IMG/VR virus record: IMGVR_UViG_2529292976_000006
Length of the DNA stretch: 15,731 bases
Source: a virus
Taxonomy: Duplodnaviria; Heunggongvirae; Uroviricota; Caudoviricetes
Direction: 5' to 3' (one strand)
Shown here: positions 14,739 through 15,731 of the stretch, piece by piece
Position numbering within the stretch: the stretch's first letter is position 1
How the letters are laid out: each line of letters opens with the position of its first letter
Made by a program: the position numbers and the translations under genes
Notes under the pieces: model-generated
Told to the model about the DNA's origin: nothing
What the model saw: the letters and a program-made list of their open reading frames with translations, nothing else
The model's database searches: none

Positions 14739-14845
14739 TCTATTCTCGTACGCTGCAACGTGAGGTCGTACCCCGGACACGGGTAAACATCCGGCAATTC
14801 CAGCTTACCACCTATTTAACCCCCTCCCCGTAACGAGACGAAGAA

Positions 14846-15731
14846 ATGAGCACTCATCATGTTGTGAGTTTTTCAGGCGGTCGGACATCGGCGTACCTCG
14901 TCCACCTTATGGAGCAACGCAGAAAAGCTGGTGAAAACGTTCATTACATACTCATGGATACGGGATGTGAACACCCGCTGACGTACCGGTTTATTCGGGA
15001 GGTTGTGAAGTTCTGGGATATTCCGCTAACCGTGTTGCAGGTCGATATAAATCCAGAGCTTGGGCAGCCAAATGGTTATACGGAATGGGAACCAAAGGAT
15101 ATTCAGACGCGAATGCCGGTGCTTAAACCGTTTATGGACATGGTAAAAAAATATGGCACGCCATACATCGGCGGCGCGTTCTGCACTGACAGATTAAAAC
15201 TCACCCCCTTCATAAAATACTGCGATGACCATTTCGGACAAGGGAACTACATCACGTGGCTGGGTATTCGTGCAGACGAACCCCGTAGGCTGAAACCGAA
15301 ACCGGGCGTCCGGTATCTTGCCGAACTGTCAGATTTTGATAAGTCGGATGTTATCCGGTGGTGGCGAAAACAACCTTTTGATTTGCAAATCCCGGAGCAC
15401 CTCGGGAACTGTGTTTTCTGCATCAAAAAGTCAACGCAAAAGCTGGGGCTTGCATGTAAAGACGAACCTGGTCTGATGCGGGTTTTTAATGAACTGGTTA
15501 CAGGCAAACACGTCAGGGATGGTCATCGCAGAACAGGTAAAGACGTTATGTACCGTGGTCACCTGACGCTTGACGGGATTGCCAGGATGTATGCCGACAG
15601 CGACTACAGCAATTTGTATCAAGCGATGGTGCTGGCCAAGCGGTTTGATACTGGTTTGAACCGCCCCGGGTTTCCTGGAGAGTGTTTTATCTGTGAACTC
15701 AGGCTGCCAGATCATCGTTTCCGATGGAAGC
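14846..15731 (+). CDS. PAPS-reductase-like PP-loop (ATP pyrophosphatase) family protein, 3' end truncated by the window edge
   Basis: Open frame from the ATG at 14846 to the window end (>295 codons), not in the supplied ORF track because it has no stop. N-terminal PP-loop signature SFSGGRTSAYLV and later Cys-containing motifs (CVFCIKK, CFICE). SD is weak, so the start is uncertain. Confidence 0.65.
   Translation, partial: MSTHHVVSFSGGRTSAYLVHLMEQRRKAGENVHYILMDTGCEHPLTYRFIREVVKFWDIPLTVLQVDINPELGQPNGYTEWEPKDIQTRMPVLKPFMDMVKKYGTPYIGGAFCTDRLKLTPFIKYCDDHFGQGNYITWLGIRADEPRRLKPKPGVRYLAELSDFDKSDVIRWWRKQPFDLQIPEHLGNCVFCIKKSTQKLGLACKDEPGLMRVFNELVTGKHVRDGHRRTGKDVMYRGHLTLDGIARMYADSDYSNLYQAMVLAKRFDTGLNRPGFPGECFICELRLPDHRFRWK

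Follow-up and report, generated by a model that had tools for sequence, protein, structure and literature searches.

An IS1203/IS629-disrupted ninC-family PP-loop gene in the early-left accessory region of a lambdoid prophage

The 15,731-nucleotide stretch of viral DNA analyzed here (the window; IMG/VR record IMGVR_UViG_2529292976_000006, Caudoviricetes) ends in a plus-strand open reading frame (ORF) that a first-pass annotation, made from the letters alone, had described as a 3′-phosphoadenosine 5′-phosphosulfate (PAPS)-reductase-like PP-loop protein. We find that this gene belongs to the family of phage lambda NinC and that it was almost certainly disrupted, after codon G270, by an insertion sequence (IS) of the IS1203/IS629 type; family identity and IS disruption are both points beyond that annotation. 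The best overall explanation, to which we assign a probability of roughly 0.6, is that the window carries an IS-disrupted copy of a NinC-family gene whose intact product is an ATP-dependent, cysteine/Fe-S sulfurtransferase-type enzyme acting on DNA in an anti-restriction role. Taken by itself, the component of this explanation that casts the protein as a DNA-directed counter-defense enzyme is tentative, and we place it somewhat short of even odds. For the locus, the result is mainly a correction: it holds a catalogued NinC gene in a probably IS-inactivated copy, not a gene with unseen partners.

The ORF opens with an ATG at position 14846 and, when translated, meets no stop before the window ends at 15731. 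Conservation is given below for 123 family representatives whose mutual identity is at most 50%. The features are as follows.

14846 to 15656, plus strand: native portion of the NinC-like gene, from codon 1 to the first base of codon 271, out of 292 codons in the intact allele
14867 to 14890, plus strand: PP-loop SFSGGRTS, residues 8-15, the ATP/pyrophosphate-binding motif, invariant in the family and aligned to FSGGKDS of DndC
14957 to 14965, plus strand: DTG motif, residues 38-40, common to PAPS/adenosine 5′-phosphosulfate (APS) reductases and DndC
15179 to 15199, plus strand: FCTDRLK motif with Cys113 and Lys118, both invariant (123/123 representatives), aligned to WCTDRLK of DndC
15404 to 15421, plus strand: GNCVFC motif with Cys189 and Cys192 (a CxxC pair), both invariant (123/123 representatives)
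15657 to 15731, minus strand: end of an IS3-family IS1203/IS629 element (terminal 75 nt), starting with the terminal inverted repeat TGAACCGCCCCGGG
14739 to 14845, plus strand by same-strand gene order: intergenic spacer upstream of the NinC-like gene

The Pfam family PAPS_reduct (PF01507) matches the window protein with an E value of 2.3e-8 and 34.7 bits (gathering cutoff 22.5), in a match limited to residues 5-72 and, of the 175 profile positions, to 2-66. Among the representatives there is essentially no variation at the S-G-G-x-[TS]-S positions, and the four core motifs (SGGx[TS]S, DTG, CTDRLK and GNCxxC) are all present in the window ORF and invariant or nearly so in the family. Because the Pfam match exceeds its cutoff, the protein also matches PHROG family phrog_424 and the loop positions are conserved, we take SFSGGRTS for a genuine PP-loop and not a chance match. 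Motif, Pfam threshold and an adenine-nucleotide alpha-hydrolase fold together place the protein in the PP-loop ATP pyrophosphatase superfamily, and the initial description of it as PAPS-reductase-like is borne out at this level.

Membership in the lambda NinC family (PHROG 424) is indicated by similarity over the full length. The window protein is 81% identical to lambda NinC over 266 amino acids (residues 5-270), and phrog_424 covers residues 2-291 of the intact allele with an E value of 2e-92; the hidden Markov model classification that had been proposed as a check thus returned a match to this family, with CysH and DndC models far below their cutoffs. The family is large: a threshold of E<=1e-5 yields 5010 homologues, and one of E<=1e-3 yields 3211 clusters at 50% identity. 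An AlphaFold2 model of P0001, a full-length homologue 95% identical to the window protein, shows a PP-loop ATP-pyrophosphatase fold (predicted local distance difference test score 87.8; predicted template modeling score 0.85) in which only residues 267-292 are disordered. The intact product, of 292 amino acids, is classed as a PP-loop ATP pyrophosphatase that stands alone, on the PAPS-reductase/DndC/SspD branch. It is no newcomer, since many Shiga toxin (Stx) phages have this gene annotated as NinC or PAPS reductase. Many family members (P0124, P0130, P0131 and others) carry an insertion of ~60-90 amino acids between LGIRADEP and the next YLA strand, near residue 150 of the window protein.

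The 3′ part of the ORF has a different origin. In megablast searches, the DNA of the gene is 100% identical to that of Stx-converting Oslovirus phages (PA2, VT2phi_272, ArgO145 and others) up to position 15656, where the identity ends, and alignment with PA2 and Stx2_110509 sets the point of divergence exactly at 15656/15657. The 75 nt that follow are identical or nearly so to the IS1203/IS629 end found in thousands of E. coli copies: an 82-nt query with this end matched at ~24,650 places, spread over 4068 of the 5426 complete E. coli genomes searched, and the matched places are annotated "IS3-like element IS1203 family transposase". The assignment rests on the terminal inverted repeat together with the adjoining 3′ end of the transposase gene, whose last 10 codons and stop are read on the minus strand from 15731 to 15699 (tail ASIGNDDLAA, then stop). 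Accordingly, the last 25 "codons" of a naive translation of the window, LNRPGFPGECFICELRLPDHRFRWK, are encoded by the IS and are not the native protein tail; given a standard IS copy, the fused NinC-IS frame would extend 78 codons to a stop. The earlier statement that the gene is truncated at the window edge holds insofar as the frame is open to the last base, but the native sequence stops at 15656 and the IS follows.

We considered whether the junction could be an assembly or window artifact, the gene being intact in the source genome. The window stops only 75 nt into a multicopy IS, as is typical of short-read contig ends, and neither megablast against the same 5426 E. coli genomes and against 50,697 phage records nor a 38-mer search of the GTDB species representatives and IMG/VR returned the junction. 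Against this, the break falls precisely where the IS terminal inverted repeat begins, which is what transposition produces and what a repeat-induced misjoin normally does not, and IS629/IS1203 insertions are common elsewhere in related Stx phages. Because the break coincides with the exact IS terminus, we favor true transposition and leave the artifact only a slight chance. A true insertion is predicted to read through the IS into a GGTT duplication and then the 3′ remnant CGTGTTCCGAATCATGTGAA (CGTGTTCCGAATCATGTGAAATC), and the uninterrupted allele to read GATACTGGTTCGTGTTCC. An IS1203 insertion whose ends and 4-bp GGTT duplication are visible lies in a contig of E. coli O111:H8 1056-1 (L003; 1596-1612 and 2913-2925).

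That second insertion is independent and lies in an unrelated, N4-gp56-like capsid gene. The 12-nt target ATACTGGTT/CGT is the same in this capsid gene and in the window NinC gene (window 15645-15660), which may reflect a target preference of IS629/IS1203 or coincidence. Two further elements were noted in related phages: Stx2_110509 has an IS copy ~760 bp downstream of its NinC gene, and the Dam-type gene of PA2 (L004, 2219-4158) is split by an IS3-family element, so that IS insertions recur in this accessory region of Stx phages.

The intact allele shows what the window copy has lost. In PA2 (L001:6847-7725), the protein has 292 amino acids and ends ...RFDTG-SCSESCEIWGDQLELKFEEVVA; at G270 it continues as GSCSESCE. 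Alignments of 17 and of 66 homologues (52-95% identity) show little or no variation at G270, C272, E274, S275, C276 and E277, and the family has the tail signature C-[ST]-E-S-C-E. Within the 123 representatives, Cys113, Cys189 and Cys192 are each present in every sequence; Cys272 is found in 116 and Cys276 in 119, with exceptions that are mostly alignment gaps, and Cys126 is not conserved. The IS starts at 15657, right after codon 270, and the window copy thus lacks the tail signature with both Cys272 and Cys276. Judged by its sequence, it is a disrupted member of the NinC family, and because the IS removes the conserved C-terminal cysteine pair, it is very probably inactive, a likely pseudogene.

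The RefSeq record for the PA2 gene (NC_028449) gives a coding sequence of 6910-7725, in place of 6847-7725, which begins at an internal methionine (MEQRRK...) equivalent to window position 14909 instead of 14846. This start removes the invariant PP-loop SFSGGRTS, and homologues and the P0001 gene calls use the upstream ATG; the RefSeq start is probably wrong.

What the intact protein might do is suggested first by its relation to enzymes of DNA phosphorothioation. Among models of defense systems, the best matches are SspD, followed by DndC and BrxP (PADLOC), and a comparison of the family profile with DndC by hhalign (the 379-amino-acid protein of Aureimonas plasmid pAU20f, encoded next to dndD) gave a probability of 94.6% and an E value of 6.7e-8, aligning NinC residues 5-148 to DndC residues 37-174. 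The motifs shared in this alignment are FSGG(R/K)(T/D)S, DT..E.P, (F/W)CTDRLK, which includes Cys113, and LG(I/V)R.DE. Assignment to either family nevertheless failed. The curated DndC model TIGR03183 scored 15.5 bits with a cutoff of 290.4, and the PADLOC DndC model gave only E 6e-4. The PADLOC SspD model reached E 2.4e-14 but aligned only profile positions 1-121 of 277 to residues 4-148, and the gene has no ssp neighbors. The first-pass suggestion of a DndC-type relation is thus sound as to affinity and not as to membership.

The cysteine inventory extends the resemblance. DndC is a PP-loop ATP pyrophosphatase that binds a [4Fe-4S] cluster through three cysteines and has a cysteine dyad proposed as the sulfur carrier (PMC10853773). 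The inventory of NinC is formally similar, with three universal cysteines and a cysteine pair on a tail that is disordered in the model; beyond Cys113, the equivalence of individual cysteines would be conjectural.

A second line of evidence comes from gene fusions. The 150 top representatives include seven long fusions (Pfam). Dam (PF05869) is fused N-terminally in P0121 and P0123 and C-terminally in P0122, P0127 and P0150, and a D12-class N6-adenine methyltransferase (PF02086) is fused C-terminally in P0129. The occurrence of Dam on either side, along with the D12-class fusion, suggests more than one independent fusion event. A methyltransferase gene adjoins the NinC-like gene in Riemerella phage RAP44, and the early-left operon of PA2 also includes a Dam-type gene, ~7 kb farther downstream. 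The family has a single recurrent partner, an N6-adenine DNA methyltransferase, which is either fused, on one side or the other, or encoded in the vicinity.

One of the fused homologues has been used in a genetic experiment. The PAPS-Dam fusion p0018 of vibriophage 44E38.1 (P0088) shares 56% identity with the window protein across residues 5-270, and transfer of p0018 together with p0019 into a sensitive phage enabled infection of a Dnd-carrying host (bioRxiv 10.1101/2021.05.05.442762, a preprint of Piel et al.). With this homologue in an anti-Dnd cassette, the previously proposed role in DNA modification, defense or anti-defense is a reasonable reading. A 2026 survey likewise reports PAPS-reductase genes in operons regulated by anti-CRISPR-associated (Aca) proteins and suggests an anti-defense role (PMC13551039). 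A 2025 "anti-Dnd" paper in mBio was considered as evidence for NinC and set aside, as it concerns JSS1_004, an unrelated kinase/shutoff protein.

Taking these observations together, we envisage the following mechanism for the intact enzyme. ATP would be bound at the PP-loop and used to adenylate an oxygen of a nucleic-acid substrate, most likely DNA. The cysteine triad (113/189/192) would hold an Fe-S cluster or another metal center, by analogy with DndC, APS reductase and TtuA/NcsA, and sulfur from a host cysteine desulfurase would be delivered by the mobile C-terminal cysteine pair. Phage DNA might thereby be marked or protected against modification-dependent restriction such as Dnd, and in some phages and plasmids a fused or adjacent N6-adenine methyltransferase could supply DNA targeting. 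Extended to the whole family, lambda NinC included, this becomes the proposal that NinC proteins are single-polypeptide, ATP-dependent, sulfur-inserting DNA modifiers that hide DNA from Dnd/Ssp-type or other modification-sensing restriction, and that phages and plasmids may deploy them by themselves or linked with an N6-adenine methyltransferase. In this general form, we regard the proposal as speculative and rather unlikely to hold in full.

Several considerations weigh against our explanation. DndC-like chemistry is an extrapolation from sequence: the matches to DndC and SspD alike reach no further than residue 148, and all curated models for DndC and CysH score far under their thresholds. 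The anti-Dnd effect is not assignable to the NinC-like module alone, since two genes were moved and the PAPS module is fused to Dam. Lambda ninC is dispensable (PMC10695390); our literature search for direct work on NinC retrieved an essentiality screen alone and found no biochemical study of any family member. Family identity, fold, motif conservation, the IS junction, the absence of conserved partners and the recurrence of methyltransferase fusions are direct results; we infer the substrate, the sulfur chemistry, the Fe-S cluster and cysteine roles and the anti-restriction role, as well as, from conservation only, the loss of function in the disrupted copy. As to the insertion, only the terminal 75 nt of the IS lie inside the window, the 3′ gene remnant and the target duplication being outside it.

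Two other functions deserve consideration, and we judge both improbable. The protein could be an ATP-dependent DNA modifier that transfers no sulfur, for example an amidotransferase-like enzyme producing a hypermodification alongside adenine methylation, with the cysteines binding structural zinc. Many PP-loop enzymes have nothing to do with sulfur, and TilS, QueC and the GMP and NAD synthetases are among the structural neighbors; CxxC and CxxxC could make a zinc site, and fusions to N6-adenine methyltransferases are recurrent. The closest relatives in sequence (SspD, DndC, BrxP and APS reductase) are nevertheless all sulfur enzymes, and Cys113 falls within the CTDRLK motif common to DndC, which speaks for sulfur chemistry. 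Alternatively, the substrate could be RNA. An enzyme of TtcA/TtuA/NcsA type that thiolates or otherwise modifies tRNA might adjust translation, or might protect tRNAs, or repair them, when host defenses target them. The sequence affinity of the family is to SspD, DndC, BrxP and CysH and not to tRNA thiolases, its fusion partners are DNA N6-adenine methyltransferases (from two Pfam families and in both orders), and its only genetic phenotype concerns a defense based on DNA modification.

Least probable is that the gene encodes a genuine PAPS/APS reductase (CysH), an auxiliary metabolic gene (AMG) boosting host sulfate assimilation during infection, as suggested by the above-threshold Pfam match, by the PHROG category "moron, auxiliary metabolic gene" with which most annotations agree, and by the best structural neighbors, which are APS and PAPS reductases: the Pfam match covers little more than a third of its profile, and an enzyme of sulfate assimilation would have no reason to be fused repeatedly to DNA methyltransferases. 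The dedicated CysH models all stay below their cutoffs (NF002537, 22.6 versus 154 bits; TIGR00434, 16.1 versus 165.1; TIGR02057, 12.6 versus 254.2). CysH is characterized by a C-terminal catalytic cysteine motif, ECGLH, which is absent from the 292-amino-acid intact sequence; the tail reads GSCSESCEIWGDQLELKFEEVVA, with CSESCE in its place. Searches of PDB sequences, with the single sequence and with the family profile, matched CysH enzymes over the N-terminal ~95 residues only and returned no close solved relative. A match to a housekeeping CysH, which the first-pass annotation had named as the outcome that would overturn its view, was therefore not found.

The wider interest of these results lies in what NinC proteins do (a family of >3000 clusters at 50% identity) and not in the window locus. 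Three lines lead to the hypothesis that NinC is a DNA-acting counter-defense enzyme, as opposed to the label "AMG": the five conserved cysteines, some of them in the family-specific CSESCE tail, the DndC-like N-terminal half and the repeated, independent methyltransferase fusions. We caution that "cysH" matches of the NinC type in viromes should not be counted as auxiliary metabolic genes. If the sulfur-inserting proposal proved true, it would supply a function for a lambda gene to which none is assigned, and for which the literature search found no dedicated study; it would also describe a one-gene counter-defense that mimics the multi-protein phosphorothioation machinery of the host, of which the window copy would be a natural knockout.

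The surroundings of the gene agree with its early-left placement. On the plus strand of the window, a cI-like S24 repressor (5055-5768) and a methylase/endonuclease pair (5863-8282) are followed by genes on the same strand for Rha, kil, a gam-like protein, RecT, an exonuclease, an SSB-like protein, DUF2303 and a 147-amino-acid protein of unknown function, after which comes the NinC-like gene. This same-strand order from the cI-like gene to DUF2303 confirms the earlier placement, and the locus belongs to an Oslovirus-type (Stx-converting) lambdoid prophage, in its early-left accessory region. A promoter and terminator scan of the spacer at 14739-14845 found nothing. With no convincing promoter there, the gene is presumably transcribed from within the early-left operon.

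Two other modules of the window were noted. The methylase/endonuclease pair is a type II restriction-modification system in the prophage immunity region, where it separates the cI-like repressor from the early-left operon. Its members are an Eco57I-type N6-adenine methylase (489 amino acids; 5863-7332) and a BsuBI/PstI-family endonuclease (317 amino acids; 7329-8282); the stop codon of the first overlaps the start codon of the second. On the minus strand, the replication module (1372-3853) comprises a primase-like protein (Zn_Ribbon_Prim, DUF7146, Toprim_3) and then a superfamily 2 helicase (ResIII/Helicase_C), and is not a lambda O/P pair.

Partners of the NinC-like gene, if any, had been expected beyond the window, and extending the sequence through intact relatives gave no support to this expectation. 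In phage PA2 and six contigs carrying P0001, which likewise lies in early-left accessory regions, the gene is followed by two ORFs of unknown function (67 and 79 amino acids) and Ea22-like genes, and by nothing else; no Dnd, Ssp or ParB genes were found there. Neither upstream in the window nor downstream in these relatives did we detect dndB/D/E, dndA/iscS or sspA/B/C. We also looked for a small conserved partner resembling vibriophage p0019. BLASTP of p0019 against the 147-amino-acid window protein and a 192-amino-acid protein upstream of P0001 gave nothing; of these three proteins, only p0019 has DUF6475 (Pfam), and they are mutually unrelated. In other prophages (contigs L018-L022, 700-4224), the genes upstream of P0001 encode a Metallophos phosphoesterase, a 420-amino-acid unknown protein and a HAD_PNKP-type phosphatase, a set that recalls RNA-repair or counter-defense modules.

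Elsewhere, the family gene occupies varied positions. P0097, a paralogue with 55% identity, fills the canonical NinB-NinC-NinE slot of lambdoid prophages; other phages carry the gene next to tRNA genes, within the early genes or between the terminase and portal genes. Plasmids carry it too, namely E. coli plasmids of about 90-100 kb, whose size would fit phage-plasmids, and about 140 plasmids of Acinetobacter. Neighbors differ wholly from phage to phage, with none conserved, and the NinC-like module behaves as a stand-alone, mobile accessory gene. Many of the Acinetobacter plasmids are conjugative. On one plasmid of A. baumannii, p15A34_1 (L026, 2352-6057), the NinC-like gene directly follows a second PAPS-reductase-family gene (363 amino acids), with an N-6 DNA methylase ~1 kb away and ParA/ParB near; this could be an anti-restriction cluster.

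Among known systems, the NinC-like protein differs from CysH, with which only ~160 of 292 residues superpose and which has a degenerate SSSFGIQA where the window protein keeps the canonical ATP-type SGGxxS, here SGGRTS. With DndC, SspD and BrxP it shares the N-terminal PP-loop nucleotide-binding half (FSGGxxS, DTG, CTDRLK, LGxRxDE) and a cysteine-rich catalytic design, whereas its C-terminal helical domain and CSESCE tail are specific to the family. Typical DndC proteins are also much longer, and, unlike genes of the Dnd and Ssp systems, the window gene has no dndA/B/D/E or sspA/B/C neighbors. Vibriophage p0018 carries the same conserved cysteines and the CSESCE motif, but it bears a C-terminal Dam domain and was tested with p0019 (DUF6475), whereas the window gene carries no fusion and lacks a neighboring p0019 homologue. 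The closest counterpart is lambda NinC. The window gene differs from it in lying in the early-left operon, past the recombination module, rather than in the NinB-NinC-NinE slot of the nin region, and in being cut by IS1203/IS629. The intact allele and lambda NinC (P0009 being the lambda-like sequence) otherwise belong to the same length class of ~290 amino acids, share the PP-loop, CTDRLK, GNCxxC and C-terminal GSCSESCE motifs, and are both non-essential accessory genes of lambdoid phages.

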